Shown: piece after piece, positions 2,958 through 26,518 of the stretch
Layout: every line of letters starts with the position of its first letter
Numbering within the stretch: the first letter of the stretch is position 1
DNA from: Shigella phage vb_GEC_SH_GT
DNA: 64,000 bases
Reading direction: 5' to 3' (one strand)
Sequence record: OR887633
Notes under the pieces: model-generated
The model's database searches: none
The model's input: only the letters and a program-made list of their open reading frames with translations
What the model was told of the DNA's origin: nothing
Program-made: the position numbers and the translations under genes

Positions 2958-3428
2958 TTAATCATGTTTCCACACCCCATCGGTATTTGACCAAAGTCGC
3001 TGATTATCTGAACCTCGCCACAGCTTTTTGGTCGGAAGATTTTTCTCATACTTCCCATCAATAATAACATCAACATATTTAAGCATTTCTAGTTTTTTAA
3101 TATCTTCAAACTTGTACCCTGTCCACAACCAAATGCTTTTATTCGGATAAAGATTTTTTACTGTTTGAACAATGCAATGAACAGCATCTCGGTTATCAGG
3201 ATAAAGAGGGTCTCCTCCAGTTATAGTTAATCCTTCTATATAATCATTATTCAAACATTCAATTAATTGTTCTAGTGTTTCACCAGTGAATGGAACGCCA
3301 TTTCTAGCATTCCATGTTGATTTATTATAACACCCTTCGCATTTATGCAAACAACCTGTAACGAAAAGAACGACCCTGCATCCAGGGCCATTCACAAAAT
3401 CGCAGGGATAAAATCTATCGTAATTCAT
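2958..3428 (-). CDS. nrdG: Anaerobic ribonucleotide reductase activating protein (radical SAM)
   Basis: 156 aa; CLHKCEGC (CX3CX2C) cluster motif; stop overlaps the nrdD region. Confidence 0.9.
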   Translation of the reverse strand: MNYDRFYPCDFVNGPGCRVVLFVTGCLHKCEGCYNKSTWNARNGVPFTGETLEQLIECLNNDYIEGLTITGGDPLYPDNRDAVHCIVQTVKNLYPNKSIWLWTGYKFEDIKKLEMLKYVDVIIDGKYEKNLPTKKLWRGSDNQRLWSNTDGVWKHD

Positions 3429-5242
3429 TGGTGTTTAACCCTATGCATGATTTCTTTATTTTTGCCAAGATTAAATCCGCGCTCGTTCGGATTTCCTAAA
3501 TAGCCGCATGTTCTTCTTATGGTGTTCATCTTTTTAGGATCATTTTCTCCACAAATAGAACAAACAAATCCGTTTTCAGTAGGAGTCATTTCATGGGTAC
3601 TTCCACACGTAAAACATTTATCTACTGGCATATTAACACCAAAATAATCTAAATGTTGTGCAGCATAATCCCATACAGCCTCAAGACCTTTTAGGTTATT
3701 TTTCATATCAGGAAGTTCAACATAAGAAATGTGACCACCTGTCGCAATGAAATGATACGGAGCTTCGCGAGAAATCTTTTCAAACGGAGTAATATTTTCT
3801 TCTACTGAAACGTGGAAACTGTTAGTGTACCAGCCTTTATCGGTAACATCTTTTACACTTCCATATTTTTCGGTATCAAGTTTACAGAAGCGATAGCACA
3901 GGTTTTCAGCAGGAGTAGAATACAAACTAAAAGCAAAACCGGTTCTTTCAGTCCACTGCTTAAGACGAGCATTCATTTTAGTCAAAATTTCCTGTCCAAT
4001 ATCACGACCGACAAGAATATTCAATTCGTGAATACCAATGTATCCTAGGGATACTGAACTTCTACCGTTTTTAAATAACTCAATTATATCGTCATCAGGT
4101 TTAAGACGGACCCCGAATGCACCTTCTTGGTAAAGAATAGGAGCAACAGTAGCTTTAACTCCTTTTAAGGAACTAATTCTACACATCAAAGCTTCAAAAC
4201 ATAAATCCATTCGTTCATTGAACAATTCGGCAAATTTCTGTTCATTGAACTGTGTTCCAATATAAGAATCTAATGCAATACGAGGAAGATTCAGTGTTAC
4301 AACACCAAGATTATTACGTCCATCAAGAATTTCATTACCAGTCGAATCTTTCCATACGCCCAAGAAACTACGGCAACCCATTGGAGAAACAGGAATAGAT
4401 GAACCAGTGATAGCTTTATTGTTCTTAGCCGAAATGATGTCAGGATACATTCTTTTGCTTGCACACTCTAGAGCAAGCTGCTTAATATCATAGTTCGGAT
4501 CGTCTTTATAAAGATTAACACCTTCTTCAACGAACATAACAAGTTTAGGGAAAATAGGAGTTATCCCGTCACGACCAAGACCTTTAATACGATTTTTCAG
4601 AATTGCTTTCTGAATCATTCGTTCAGTCCAGTCAGTTCCCGTACCAAATGTAATTGTTACAAAAGGCGTTTGTCCGTTTGAACTAAAGAGAGTATTTACT
4701 TCATATTCATAAGCTTGGAACGCATCGTATACGTCTTTTTCTGTTTTAGACTGGGCGTAATTCAACGCATCAGCGATTTGCCATTTTTCTGCATCCTCAA
4801 TATGTTTTGCATAGGTGCGTTTAACATAAGGAGAAAGTACTTTGTCTACATTCGCAAAAGTCGTTCCACCGTATTGATGGGAAGCAACCTGTGCAGTAAT
4901 TTGTGCCATAATTGCAGTAGCAACGCCAATTGATTTAGGGGTTTCAATCTGTGCATTACCAAGCTTAAACCCGTTCTCAAGCATTCCTTTTAAATCTACT
5001 AAACAGCAATTAGTAAATGGAAGAGCAGGGGAATAATCAATATCATGGAAATGAATAATTCCGCTTTCATGCGCTTTCATAATAAAAGACGGGACCATAT
5101 TTTTGGCAATGTGTTTAGACACAATACCAGCCATAAGGTCCCGTTGAGTTGGAAAAACACGAGAATCTTTATTAGCATTCTCGTTTAAAAGGTCTTTATT
5201 AGTTTTATGAATCAATCCTTCAATTTCTTTTTCAATTGTCAT
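3425..5242 (-). CDS. nrdD: Anaerobic ribonucleoside-triphosphate reductase (class III), uninterrupted
   Basis: 605 aa; C-terminal glycyl-radical motif RRTCGYLG and Cys zinc ribbon; continuous ORF. Confidence 0.92.
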   Translation of the reverse strand: MTIEKEIEGLIHKTNKDLLNENANKDSRVFPTQRDLMAGIVSKHIAKNMVPSFIMKAHESGIIHFHDIDYSPALPFTNCCLVDLKGMLENGFKLGNAQIETPKSIGVATAIMAQITAQVASHQYGGTTFANVDKVLSPYVKRTYAKHIEDAEKWQIADALNYAQSKTEKDVYDAFQAYEYEVNTLFSSNGQTPFVTITFGTGTDWTERMIQKAILKNRIKGLGRDGITPIFPKLVMFVEEGVNLYKDDPNYDIKQLALECASKRMYPDIISAKNNKAITGSSIPVSPMGCRSFLGVWKDSTGNEILDGRNNLGVVTLNLPRIALDSYIGTQFNEQKFAELFNERMDLCFEALMCRISSLKGVKATVAPILYQEGAFGVRLKPDDDIIELFKNGRSSVSLGYIGIHELNILVGRDIGQEILTKMNARLKQWTERTGFAFSLYSTPAENLCYRFCKLDTEKYGSVKDVTDKGWYTNSFHVSVEENITPFEKISREAPYHFIATGGHISYVELPDMKNNLKGLEAVWDYAAQHLDYFGVNMPVDKCFTCGSTHEMTPTENGFVCSICGENDPKKMNTIRRTCGYLGNPNERGFNLGKNKEIMHRVKHQ

Positions 5243-20761: not shown

Positions 20762-21105
20762 CTAGTACTCAATCCTCGATTATAAGAATCTACCAAACGG
20801 TCAACCATTGAATGACAAGCGGCTTTATCTTTCTCCTCCGCAACTGAACATTCTAAGGTATTCCACTTTTTAGCATATCGTTTTAATAATGTATCGTTTT
20901 TGTATCTGCTTGATTTATCTCTTTCTCCGTCTTTATATGCATATATTAATTTCTGTGCAAATTCAGCTTGGCATGCTTTATTTTTCCCACAATAATCTGC
21001 CGCAGTGCGGTTTACATATTCTCTAATTTCAGTATATGATGTATCTGCTGACGCAGAAGCAGAAAATGAAATTAATCCTATACATAAAACCAAAATTTTA
21101 GTCAT
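20758..21105 (-). CDS. Secreted small protein (vs position)
   Basis: 115 aa with N-terminal signal peptide MTKILVLCIGLISFSASASA; four Cys. Confidence 0.5.
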   Translation of the reverse strand: MTKILVLCIGLISFSASASADTSYTEIREYVNRTAADYCGKNKACQAEFAQKLIYAYKDGERDKSSRYKNDTLLKRYAKKWNTLECSVAEEKDKAACHSMVDRLVDSYNRGLSTR

Positions 21106-21643
21106 TTACTATTTCCAAAAGTTTATTATTTTTAAGGTAATTAGCCTTTTCTAGGACTTCAGAAGCATATTTAGAACCAGCTTTAACATTCCATCCCGAA
21201 TTATAAGAGGATATTGCTTTTCTTATATCGCCCTTATGTATATTTAACCAATAAGAAAGTTCAATGTACGCCCAGGAAGCTGAATTGGACCGTTTATTCA
21301 ACATTCTTTTTATTTCAGCATCGGTCATATTATAACCAAGTTCCTTAACTCTTGCTCGCATAGTAGGCAAATAATTTTGGAACATTCCGTAGGCGTGATG
21401 CTTTGGTTTAGATTTTAAATTAACTCCGCCAGAGCTTTCTTGCCATAAAATAGCAGCCATTATATGACCTAATCCGCTCTTGTGGATATTTTTGTGTGTT
21501 TTATATTTTCCATCCTTAGAAAATTGTTCCCCGAATTGATACGCGTAACGCATGTTATCGAGTTGGACATTACTGAAAGTATGCTCGGAGCTATGTGCCA
21601 TCATTGAAATGGCCAATAGACCAGCGAGTAGTGCTTTTCTCAT
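21098..21643 (-). CDS. Secreted lytic-transglycosylase-like protein (SLT domain)
   Basis: Signal peptide MRKALLAGLLAISMMAHS; LWQESSGG...AYGMFQ fits the SLT E-S...G-L-M-Q pattern. Confidence 0.55.
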   Translation of the reverse strand: MRKALLAGLLAISMMAHSSEHTFSNVQLDNMRYAYQFGEQFSKDGKYKTHKNIHKSGLGHIMAAILWQESSGGVNLKSKPKHHAYGMFQNYLPTMRARVKELGYNMTDAEIKRMLNKRSNSASWAYIELSYWLNIHKGDIRKAISSYNSGWNVKAGSKYASEVLEKANYLKNNKLLEIVND

Positions 21644-21650
21644 GCTTACC

Positions 21651-22112
21651 TCATTGAGTTTTAATTACTGCTTTAGAAGCCTTTCCTGGTAAACGACGAC
21701 TGTTAATAATTGCCATCCTACATTGAAGTGACGGGTCTTTGAACTTCTCATTAGGTTTACAAACTGTAAATCCAAGCCAAAGATTTCCATCTGTGATTTC
21801 TAAACGTCCAGGACGATATTCAATTCCATCAATAAAATCCTCGTCAATGTCAGGACGCGGAGGCATACTCAGGAATTCATTAACTTCTAAAACATGGTCT
21901 TTTATTTTATGGAATAATTCAAAAACATATGTCTCATCAATCTCCCGTTGAATTGCACGATCAAGAAGATGCTGAGAATATTTTAGATGAAACGATGAGA
22001 CTCCTGCTGCTTTTGATGCCTCACGAATCTCATTGTTAATTTGACGAAACTCCGACTCAAAGTGACGACGAAGCTTATTTCGACGGATAAAAACTTCTGT
22101 ATTGATAGTCAT
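21651..22112 (-). CDS. regB: Site-specific RNA endonuclease RegB
   Basis: 153 aa; matches recalled T4 RegB; position after the vs block. Confidence 0.8.
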   Translation of the reverse strand: MTINTEVFIRRNKLRRHFESEFRQINNEIREASKAAGVSSFHLKYSQHLLDRAIQREIDETYVFELFHKIKDHVLEVNEFLSMPPRPDIDEDFIDGIEYRPGRLEITDGNLWLGFTVCKPNEKFKDPSLQCRMAIINSRRLPGKASKAVIKTQ

Positions 22113-22140
22113 GTTGTTCTCCTCTTAACTGATAGAAAAA

Positions 22141-22170
22141 TTATACCACAGTCAAGAGGAAAAGTAAACA
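22141..22170 (-). promoter_or_regulatory. T4-type early promoter for regB
   Basis: ttataccacag ... agtaaaca module just upstream of regB. Confidence 0.5.
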
Positions 22171-22171
22171 G

Positions 22172-22492
22172 TTATTCTTTAAATCTAATCAATTTATTCA
22201 TAGACTTTGAAACTTCCGCACGAATCTCATGTAGATTTTTGAGCTGTTCAAGACGCTGCGTATAGTAAGCAATTTCATCTTCTTCGAGACAGTCCTGCGA
22301 ATCTTCTTTAAGATAACGTGCATAGTCCTGGAAAGCTTTACGGACTACTTCCTGGAAGTCATCAAGACTTTGAATTTTCTTAGGAGCAACAGATACACGA
22401 CGAGGGGCAGTATAATACTCATAACCAAACCCTGCGCTTAATTGAGCCATTAGTATTTTTCCTCTGGTTGGAACACAGCACGGCAAGCCCAC
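22172..22492 (-). CDS. Hypothetical protein
   Basis: 106 aa ORF. Confidence 0.5.
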
Positions 22493-22716
22493 ATACTTGC
22501 TTCTTTGAGTTTCGTTTTAGCAATAGTTAACTGATCGAGGCTTTCGGCGTAATTCTTCGCGAGTTCATCATCTTCACAGCTATCAAATGCTTCCCAAAAT
22601 TCATCGTATAAAGCATCAAAGATAAGTCCTAAACGAACTTCAGCATCTTTAATAGCATTTACTTTACCGATTTTTTCGTCGGTATGTGGCTTATAACCTT
22701 TAATATCTTCAATCAT
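22450..22716 (-). CDS. Small helical protein at the vs.4 position (possible Acb2-type cyclic-nucleotide sponge)
   Basis: Start at [11 protein letters not shown] with GAGGAAG RBS; the Acb2 call rests on synteny alone. Confidence 0.35.
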
Positions 22717-22930
22717 ATTTGACTTCCTCACCAGTACATAAATCGTATTCAACTAAACGAATAGGTTCATGAATGCCATATCCCTGAACAGAAATTTCTG
22801 TCGTAGGATAAATTCCACTAATATCACCCATGTTCCATGCTTCGTTAAATTGCTGTTCGCCTGAATTACTAAACCATTCGGCGAAAGCATTTAGCGCATC
22901 TTCAGAACCTTCAATAATTATCTTTGCCAT
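22709..22930 (-). CDS. Hypothetical small acidic protein
   Basis: 73 aa ORF. Confidence 0.5.
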   Translation of the reverse strand: MAKIIIEGSEDALNAFAEWFSNSGEQQFNEAWNMGDISGIYPTTEISVQGYGIHEPIRLVEYDLCTGEEVKYD

Positions 22931-23292
22931 TACAAACTCTCGGTAAAGGTACGAGCGATAACATCGCGCTGCTGTTCCGGAGTCAGAGAGTTAAAGCGAA
23001 CTGCATAACCGGATACACGGATGGTCAGCTGCGGATATTTTTCCGGATGCTTAACTGCATCTTCCAGAGTTTCACGACGCAGAACGTTAACGTTCAGGTG
23101 TTGACCACCTTCAATTTTAACTGTAGGCTGTGGCTCAATTTCAATTTCACGGGCATGCAAACCATAGAAAATTTCTGGGTCTACAAAAGAGTCCTCTTTA
23201 AAGGTTTTAGAGACAATAATTCGTGCTTGAATACCATCTTCAAAATAAATAGTACCTTTATGTGTGCCTTCAAGAATTTGATATGCTTTCAT
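22930..23292 (-). CDS. GrcA/YfiD-like autonomous glycyl-radical cofactor
   Basis: 120 aa; C-terminal [31 protein letters not shown] carries the RVSGY glycyl-radical motif. Confidence 0.75.
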
Positions 23293-23299
23293 ATAAACC

Positions 23300-23680
23300 T
23301 CAATTAGAAAATAAATTTATCCAAGATTGTTCTTTAATTAAAAATGGCTCAGAATCATATGCCATTAAACTCTGTGTGATTAGTCCTTTAAAAGGCCCAT
23401 CAATAAATTCCATGGTAAAATATGGAATTTTATTCATTAGCCGTGCATTAGGAGCAGTACACAAAACTCTGCATCCTTTGAATACGCCTTTTTGTAATTT
23501 GTATTGCTTAGGATAAAATTCGCTCAAGACGTTGTTATTTGCCAAAATTTCAAAATGATTCACCAATTTATTTTTAATAGTTTTTGGCGAAAAATAAAGA
23601 TATTCGAAAAGCTGTGTGTCTGTCATCATTGCATTCCGATTACGAAAAACTGCGGACGAGTAATACCACCAATGCAACAT
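23300..23680 (-). CDS. Hypothetical protein
   Basis: 126 aa ORF. Confidence 0.5.
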
Positions 23681-24213
23681 TTAATATTACAGCAGTAGTG
23701 TACAGTGTCAATATGGACGCTATAAATCTTATCCATATCAGGAGATTTAACAGGCTCATCAATTATATACAAAATCCGCGAAAGCGATAAACCTCTGAAC
23801 TTGCTTCCTTTATTACCGATAAAACTACGGACAGAATCGGTAAATAAGCGGAATCGAATATCATCGCTAGAATAACGAGAAAATTCCTTTTTAATGTTAT
23901 TTGCAGAAATTTTAGCGTAAGCTGAAGTATTAGAAAGAACAATAACTGTTCCGCCATCATACAACCAATTAGCAGCAAAGTTAGTCACAGCAATTGATTT
24001 ACCAGATTGACGTCCACCATCTAGTCGAAGTGTGCAGTACTGTTTAAGTAATTCTTCAAATGGCGGGATATAATCGTTTTTACAAATTTCTTCTACTCTA
24101 GCATCAGAATGGTGTGTAAAAGCATTCATCAGGGATAGATAAGGACCAGTTAAAAATGTTCTCATTTTATTCTCTCTAAATTTGGGCCATTCCATGGCGC
24201 ATGAATTGTCCAT
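23626..24213 (-). CDS. P-loop protein (start uncertain)
   Basis: GGRQSGKS Walker-A-like motif; 195 aa ORF with several candidate Met starts. Confidence 0.5.
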   Translation of the reverse strand: MDNSCAMEWPKFRENKMRTFLTGPYLSLMNAFTHHSDARVEEICKNDYIPPFEELLKQYCTLRLDGGRQSGKSIAVTNFAANWLYDGGTVIVLSNTSAYAKISANNIKKEFSRYSSDDIRFRLFTDSVRSFIGNKGSKFRGLSLSRILYIIDEPVKSPDMDKIYSVHIDTVHYCCNIKCCIGGITRPQFFVIGMQ

Positions 24214-24318
24214 TTCTGTATTTACCCATTACCGCACTTGGGCTCGACCTTATTACAGGTTGGCGGGAATCCCTCATAGAATCATGAGGTCCAGCTTGTT
24301 CCCATATTTCTTATTTGC

Positions 24319-24792
24319 TTATTTGAATGATTTGACGTACTGAATAGAACCTTTACTATTCACGAAAGCGATTTTACCATTTTTATTATACATGGTAGCA
24401 GTACGCTGATAGCCATAAGTTTGTTTACCAGATTGATAACCAACTAATGCGAAATTATCTTCACCCATTTTATTCTGTTTAGAGCGAATACGTTCATGAC
24501 CGTGTGCCATAAGAACCTTAGCATCACCAGTTGAAATTGATCTACGAGTTTTTTCATCTTCAACTGTATTAACAAAGTCGTCAAATGAATCAAATTTAGC
24601 ATGGGATTTATTATACAGTTTTCCATCTACTGCATAATTATATCCCTGTACATCCATCTCAACTTCTGTACCATCATCCAATACAGCAGTAATTTTTTGA
24701 CCTTTTTTAAATTTCAAAAGATCAGTAAAAGATTCAGCAATAATTTGAGAATTAATAGCTGCTTCAGTGATAAATTCTTGATATGTTTTCAT
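24319..24792 (-). CDS. Internal-protein-like head protein with capsid-targeting leader
   Basis: Starts MKTYQEFITEA, the T4 internal-protein leader cleaved by gp21; 157 aa. Confidence 0.7.
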   Translation of the reverse strand: MKTYQEFITEAAINSQIIAESFTDLLKFKKGQKITAVLDDGTEVEMDVQGYNYAVDGKLYNKSHAKFDSFDDFVNTVEDEKTRRSISTGDAKVLMAHGHERIRSKQNKMGEDNFALVGYQSGKQTYGYQRTATMYNKNGKIAFVNSKGSIQYVKSFK

Positions 24793-24801
24793 ATGTTTCC
24801 T

Positions 24802-25218
24802 TTAAATGTAAATATTTTTGCCGTAATACTTGTACCAGTGTGGCTTCATTAAAATTTTTTCATCGAGTCGTTGTTGACTCAATTTAATAGCTGATTTGCA
24901 TGGATTATAATCATTTTTCCATTCTGCTGGAATATCGCTGATGTCAGGAACTTCAGTATCTTTTATACTAAACCCACGTTTTAAGCATTCCGTTATAATG
25001 TCTGATTGACGCTTTCGCAAAAATTCTAACTTATCGTAAAAGAACGTAACATGACCAGAGCCTAAAATAAACTCGGAAGATATTTTAAAATCTTTAACCC
25101 GCTTACCATTTGCCACATGTTTACGAACTATACCAAAAACACGCGGCAATTCACGATACTCAGCCATAAGATGTTGGTCGGTCAGTTCAGAAACAAGTGT
25201 TAAATTGATACGAGTCAT
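24802..25218 (-). CDS. denV: Endonuclease V (pyrimidine-dimer DNA glycosylase)
   Basis: [29 protein letters not shown]... matches recalled T4 DenV (138 aa). Confidence 0.88.
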
Positions 25219-25244
25219 AATTTCCTCCAAGTAGTTGATGAATG

Positions 25245-25276
25245 TATAGTATCAAAACCCTTGGAGGAAGTAAACA
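25245..25276 (-). promoter_or_regulatory. T4-type early promoter for denV
   Basis: tgtatagtatc ... agtaaaca module. Confidence 0.5.
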
Positions 25277-25277
25277 A

Positions 25278-26518
<1,241 letters not shown>

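Follow-up and report, generated by a model that had tools for sequence, protein, structure and literature searches.

What is a free-standing, 14-kDa glycyl-radical protein doing in a virulent phage, which enzyme does it serve, and where did its gene come from? The window analysed here, meaning the whole stretch of 64 kb of DNA from a T4-like phage (Tequatrovirus), contains a 120-aa ORF on the minus strand (22930..23292; ATG at 23292–23290 and TAA at 22932–22930 in the ORF list). The original prediction had described its product as ending in a canonical glycyl-radical sequence, and as a stand-alone GrcA/YfiD-like protein encoded in addition to NrdD and NrdG. Translation of the minus strand, a strand that the prediction had not specified, confirms the first point, and the second is borne out by the last 60 residues, which are 100% identical to E. 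coli GrcA. This GrcA reading is correct but already known, as the ORF corresponds to a named and biochemically characterised gene of T4. The DNA of the gene, which we describe further below, is a mosaic of phage and host sequence.

Identity and genomic setting of the ORF

In this Tequatrovirus, the ORF is very probably orthologous to T4 vs.6 (Y06I) and encodes an autonomous glycyl-radical cofactor. Its product has the same length as T4 Vs.6 (NP_049730, T4p117) and is identical to it at 119 of 120 positions. The T4 gene lies between vs.5 and vs.7 in the regB–denV region, with regB downstream and denV upstream, and the gene in the window occupies the same place. Five nucleotide differences separate the two genes over their whole length; in the protein, T4 has H73 and the window has R73, the residue that is also found in E. 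coli GrcA. The 2.3 kb round the ORF is 97–98.5% identical to many Tequatrovirus genomes, several of which label the gene "autonomous glycyl radical cofactor", and at least 80% of this neighbourhood is covered in 489 phage records. RefSeq names the T4 protein (NP_049730) "autonomous glycyl radical cofactor GrcA", and GrcA is likewise the name used in many further phage records. A Vs.6 homologue was detected by tblastn in 1,588 phage records, which are mostly Straboviridae and T5-like Demerecviridae of enterobacteria.

Profile searches agree with this identity, with matches much stronger than chance would give. The Pfam glycyl-radical domain (Gly_radical, PF01228) is found in Vs.6 with an E-value of 2.8e-18 and 66.8 bits, against a cut-off of 22.2. 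The best NCBIfam model is the GrcA equivalog TIGR04365 (E 3.7e-45), where full-length Vs.6 scores 153.3 bits and misses the curated cut-off of 170 bits because its N-terminal half has diverged (about 36% identity to GrcA). The match to phrog_1209 covers the full length (E 1.2e-62, residues 1–120 on profile positions 1–121) and, by profile similarity, places Vs.6 unambiguously in the phage Vs.6/Y06I family. The predicted radical-bearing glycine is Gly95, encoded at 23008..23010 (minus strand) within the motif RVSGYAV. It aligns with Gly102 of GrcA and, by the PFL alignment, corresponds to Gly734, and none of the 15 phage homologues compared departs from the motif. Vs.6 contains no cysteine. A glycyl-radical spare part can in this case be recognised from sequence alone.

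vs.6 lies among densely packed minus-strand genes, and the small phage ORFs on either side are unrelated to it. A putative Shine–Dalgarno-like GAGG (23298..23301, minus strand) lies 5 nt upstream of its ATG and overlaps the TGA stop codon of the upstream vs.7 homologue. At the other end of the gene, the stop codon of vs.6 and the start codon of the vs.5 homologue (22709–22930) overlap in a TAATG sequence (22928..22932, minus strand), an arrangement that suggests translational coupling of the two genes within one transcription unit. Scans of positions 21000–25600 gave 19 promoter sites where 16.4 were expected and 3 terminators where 2.5 were expected, both within the shuffled background; as the promoter count did not exceed this background, we did not assign a promoter. 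A terminator-like hairpin at 23096–23110, on the non-coding strand inside vs.6, was taken as a chance occurrence.

Further minus-strand neighbours in the window are vs.1 (21098–21643), regB (endoribonuclease; 21651–22112) and denV (endonuclease V; 24802–25230), and the order of the minus-strand ORFs from vs.1 to denV agrees with the T4 annotation. The mechanically called ORF of the vs.7 homologue (23300–23680, 126 aa) begins 55 nt inside a vs.8-like ORF (23626–24213), both on the minus strand. Since T4 vs.7 encodes 109 aa and has a 4-nt overlap, the true start of vs.7 in the window is probably a downstream ATG.

The enzyme served by Vs.6

The original prediction had named two possible targets, host pyruvate formate-lyase (PFL) and the phage's own NrdD, and for PFL there is direct literature on the T4 protein. 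Just two PFL spare-part proteins have been validated biochemically, E. coli YfiD and T4 Y06I (PMC8683613). As relayed there from Wagner et al. (2001), PFL-AE installs a glycyl radical on Y06I, and Y06I forms a complex with oxygen-cleaved PFL and restores its activity. In PFL, Gly734 is both the site of the radical and the site of cleavage (PMC8683613). Residues 1–60 of GrcA are disordered in solution and are required for tight binding of cleaved PFL and for efficient radical installation, and residues 61–127 form the structured insert, the portion located in the active site (PMC8683613). This biochemical work concerns T4 Y06I, 119/120 identical, and not the window protein itself (PMC8683613).

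How closely does Vs.6 resemble GrcA and PFL? E. coli GrcA (YfiD; IPR011140), whose NMR entry 6owr is the best solved-structure relative of Vs.6 (E 8.6e-42), has the same two-part layout of an N-terminal half followed by a structured radical domain. The radical glycine is kept, and residues 61–120 of Vs.6 align with GrcA 68–127, to which they are identical; the DNA encoding these C-terminal 60 residues is 97–99% identical. The N-terminal half aligns with GrcA residues 28–66 at 14 of 39 identical positions (pairwise E 1e-5), and by this alignment its homology to the N-terminal half of GrcA is remote but can still be detected. The likeness extends to the biochemistry reported for T4 Y06I, which is activated by PFL-AE and rescues cleaved PFL (PMC8683613). 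GrcA differs from Vs.6 in its length of 127 aa instead of 120, in the diverged N-terminal half and in its genomic context, as grcA lies beside ung and eamB under host regulation whereas vs.6 is part of a virulent-phage operon. Residues 58–120 of Vs.6 also align with E. coli PFL 697–759 (phmmer against PDB chains, E 5e-26), at about 80% identity. The C-terminus of PflB (~693–759; PDB 1h16, 2pfl) shares the RVSGYAV radical loop with Vs.6 and is the segment for which the spare part substitutes (PMC8683613); in contrast, Vs.6 lacks the 690-residue barrel, and about 20% of the domain residues differ.

These likenesses can be arranged into a possible course of events during infection. Located in the minus-strand run vs.8–vs.7–vs.6–vs.5, vs.6 would probably be expressed together with its neighbours, and the T4 vs.8–vs.5 region is one that we take to belong to the pre-replicative (early/middle) genes. 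Oxygen would attack the glycyl radical of host PFL and cause cleavage at Gly734, as described in the literature. The C-terminal 60 residues of Vs.6 would then slot into the cleaved PFL and replace the lost Gly-loop domain, with the N-terminal half aiding in docking, and host PflA (PFL-AE) would put a new radical on Gly95, by which the production of acetyl-CoA and formate would be restored. Since host gene expression is shut down by T4, GrcA and PFL could not be replenished in the infected cell. Phage-encoded Vs.6 could in this way sustain fermentative energy and acetyl-CoA supply in a micro-aerobic infection, for instance in the gut. Because the radical domain is literally host DNA, it is expected to be compatible with host PFL and PflA. 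No phage PflA is evident, and NrdG scores only 52 bits on the PFL-activase model, for which the cut-off is 232.

Repair of host PFL is supported by the selection that keeps the domain, as in old phage lineages the core is synonymously saturated with a dN of only 0–0.12. Against it, the N-terminal half that has diverged in Vs.6 is the very part of GrcA that is reported to matter for binding of cleaved PFL. The benefit of vs.6 to the phage is something that we infer, and the literature searched contained no in vivo phenotype of a vs.6 mutant. If Vs.6 does repair host PFL, a virulent phage would be spending resources on maintaining a fermentation enzyme of its host, which may be relevant for phage growth in the oxygen-fluctuating gut and for phage therapy under anaerobic conditions.

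Could Vs.6 instead be a spare part for phage NrdD after oxygen cleavage, activated by phage NrdG? Both genes are present at 2958–5242, as the original prediction had stated. NrdD (3425–5242, minus strand, 605 aa) scores 908 bits to NF006732 and NrdG (2958–3428, minus strand, 156 aa) 199 bits to TIGR02491, both well over the curated cut-offs. T4-type NrdD, encoded by the same phage, is also a glycyl-radical enzyme, whose C-terminal radical glycine stands in an R-x-x-G-Y context. For T4 NrdD, a paper cited in the review PMC13450708 describes Gly580 as the position of a stable radical. In addition, the Pfam match alone led the authors of an earlier comparative study to guess that the protein acts in nucleotide metabolism (PMC1524935), and spare parts for other glycyl-radical enzymes have been the subject of speculation (PMC8683613). 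However, BLASTP of Vs.6 against the NrdD of the window gave a best E-value of 2.5, for an alignment that lies off the radical site, and NrdD was rejected as a target on the basis of this direct comparison, which shows no significant similarity. The radical site of NrdD, RRTCGYLG, follows a Cys-rich stretch (CFTCG...CSICG) that Vs.6 does not have, and NrdD relies on its own activase NrdG whereas Vs.6 falls in the PFL branch. The domain of Vs.6 is 100% identical to GrcA and about 80% to PFL 697–759 and, since it was copied from host grcA DNA, it points to the host PFL system. The gene also occurs in T5-like phages. Taken with these comparisons, a role as NrdD spare part is highly improbable. Of the two targets proposed originally, PFL is thus in line with the work on T4 Y06I (PMC8683613) and NrdD is not retained; in the same way, the suggested alignment of the C-terminus was found for GrcA and for PFL 697–759, but not for NrdD.

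Within the host, targets other than oxygen-cleaved PFL can be considered. The tract that encodes the domain matches E. coli pflB at 79–83% and also tdcE at 76–79%, which makes the C-termini of these enzymes close relatives, and Vs.6 might therefore serve TdcE (2-ketobutyrate formate-lyase), other host glycyl-radical enzymes or radical-less full-length PFL. The experimental evidence, on the other hand, covers PFL repair only (PMC8683613), and we consider this reading rather unlikely. As an addition to the repair of cleaved PFL, a wider target range that includes TdcE and radical-less full-length PFL is conceivable.

Vs.6 could also work against the host enzyme, as a decoy or inhibitor that soaks up host PflA or blocks PFL and thereby redirects pyruvate flux. 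Phages often encode mimics of host proteins, and so exact a copy of the host domain could serve a competitor just as well as a helper. Yet the strict conservation of the radical glycine and of the complete catalytic loop would not be needed in a decoy, and Y06I is reported to restore activity and not to inhibit it, according to the account given in PMC8683613. A decoy function seems very improbable to us in light of these points.

A tract of E. coli grcA in the 3′ half of the gene

When vs.6 was compared by blastn with 5,426 complete E. coli genomes, only its 3′ half found a match, at 97.3% identity and in every genome. Megablast of this tract gave 96.8% identity to grcA, and the best place was 95–99% identical in 5,413 of 5,432 records. 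Aligned together, the window, T4 and E. coli grcA show a sharp switch point at nt 179 of the gene: upstream of it phage and host differ at about half of the positions, whereas downstream hardly any position differs before the last two codons. The 5′ half, codons 1–59 (23115..23292, minus strand), is a phage-type, AT-rich region with a GC content of 0.34 that encodes the N-terminal half only distantly related to GrcA. The host-derived tract (22926..23114, minus strand), with a GC content of 0.50 in its core, encodes Vs.6 residues 61–120, which comprise the structured glycyl-radical domain with a beta-strand, the Gly loop and the C-terminal helix. T4 vs.6 has the same mosaic DNA with an E. coli-identical 3′ tract.

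How recently did this tract leave the host? We compared a core of 168 nt (GGQ...RTFT). It differs from E. coli grcA at 2 positions in the window, at 1 in T4 and at 0 in Mosigvirus RPN187. For the same core, E. coli and Citrobacter differ at 13 positions with 0 amino-acid changes, and E. coli and Salmonella at 29 positions with 2 amino-acid changes. Correspondingly, dS in the core is 0–0.05 between phage and E. coli (0.048 for the window), compared with 0.39 between E. coli and Citrobacter and 1.15 between E. coli and Salmonella. A neighbour-joining tree puts the cores of Tequatrovirus and Mosigvirus nested within Escherichia; K. aerogenes LR134122 was left out of this reading of the tree, as the frameshift in its grcA distorted the tree. 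Judged by these distances, the tract passed from host to phage long after Escherichia and Citrobacter had split, and the mosaic suggests host-to-phage gene conversion.

When all 64 kb were compared with the E. coli genomes by megablast, 22926–23114 alone matched the chromosome. The only host-chromosome DNA in 64 kb is therefore the exact piece of grcA that is required to fit host PFL and PflA. Beyond this tract, the megablast search hit tRNA genes on plasmids only; the segment 30161–30317 is 83–90% identical to tRNA genes (Tyr, Thr, Asn, Arg) carried by E. coli plasmids of ~75–110 kb and had no chromosomal match. We found no published mention of the DNA-level mosaic in the searchable literature, which included two T4 reviews, with Wagner 2001 and the 2003 T4 genome review outside its reach. 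The observation of the mosaic may be new.

A tract that is near-identical to host DNA, with a GC content unlike its surroundings, is also what would be expected if vs.6 were a functionless scrap of recent host DNA that is in frame by chance. However, about 1,590 phage records from two families carry the ORF intact, and in the deep phage lineages dN is far below dS, indicative of strong purifying selection. Moreover, the N-terminal half is an old and diverged GrcA homologue, so the gene long predates the recent tract, and the T4 protein is active in vitro, as reported in PMC8683613. The probability that vs.6 is such a scrap is, in our view, practically negligible.

Distribution and history of the tract among phages

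The mosaic is not confined to the window. In 624 phage records, a tract is at least 95% identical to E. coli grcA. Among the matches listed (the best 25 of the 624 plus a sample), the left edge lies at grcA nt 199–200 in all cases, and the right edge lies at the stop codon or a few bases past it. Between T4 and Mosigvirus RPN187 the neighbouring genes are 66–71% identical and the 5′ half of vs.6 88%, compared with 98.9% for the tract. In both Tequatrovirus and Mosigvirus, the tract of ~185 nt is 98.8–100% identical to E. coli grcA.

The Jiaodavirus phages of Klebsiella carry a tract at the same place (L003, L094 and L095; codons 62–117), with a GC content of 0.55–0.58 and the Klebsiella-type residues LLDAVEH. 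This tract is nearest to K. pneumoniae grcA, at 94.6–95.8% identity (Roth04, 17-11) and a dS of 0.18, versus about 86% identity to E. coli. In PKO111, whose host is K. oxytoca, the tract is 89% identical to K. pneumoniae grcA, in a comparison set without a K. oxytoca sequence. The K. pneumoniae grcA sequences were taken from chromosomes that are labelled as plasmids in PLSDB. Chromosomes among the PLSDB "plasmids" include CP125156.1, a 5.37-Mb K. pneumoniae 'plasmid unnamed2', and LR134122.1. In the latter, from K. aerogenes NCTC10006, the annotated grcA is truncated by a frameshift.

In Karam-, Winkler-, Slopek-, Krisch-, Biquarta- and T5-like phages, the cores are 75–85% identical to any bacterial gene and have a GC content of 0.39–0.49, while their protein sequence is tightly conserved; we read these cores as an old form of the tract that has been ameliorated. 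For instance, the 56-codon core of Slopekvirus phiKp_5 (L004:301-663) differs from that of K. pneumoniae GrcA by 31 synonymous and 0 non-synonymous changes. The Slopekvirus core is a case of extreme host matching at the protein level without recent DNA transfer.

What keeps the radical domain so close to that of the host? We read vs.6 as an old phage homologue of grcA whose C-terminal domain is under very strong host-matching pressure, and in which the host allele recently overwrote this domain in at least two lineages. Whether the domain is kept host-matched by repeated gene conversion from the host chromosome, and not by purifying selection alone, we consider evenly balanced. The common left edge of the tract would fit conversion confined to that part of the gene in which similarity still suffices for recombination; it agrees just as well with one capture event and later spread from phage to phage. 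If repeated conversion is true, vs.6 would be a rare and clearly datable case of host-chromosome DNA flowing into strictly virulent T-even phages, and from its tract the recent host history of the phage could be read as from a built-in marker. The mosaic also lends itself as a natural experiment, both on the precision with which a spare part must match its enzyme and on the question of recombination between T-even phages and host DNA in nature.

Two homologues depart from the common form of the protein. That of Providencia phage PSTCR5 (L010:92-613) is annotated with 173 aa and has a long, unrelated N-terminal extension, and that of Erwinia phage Virsaitis27 (L006:301-672) ends in RTFTKGSNGY and not in RTFTESL.
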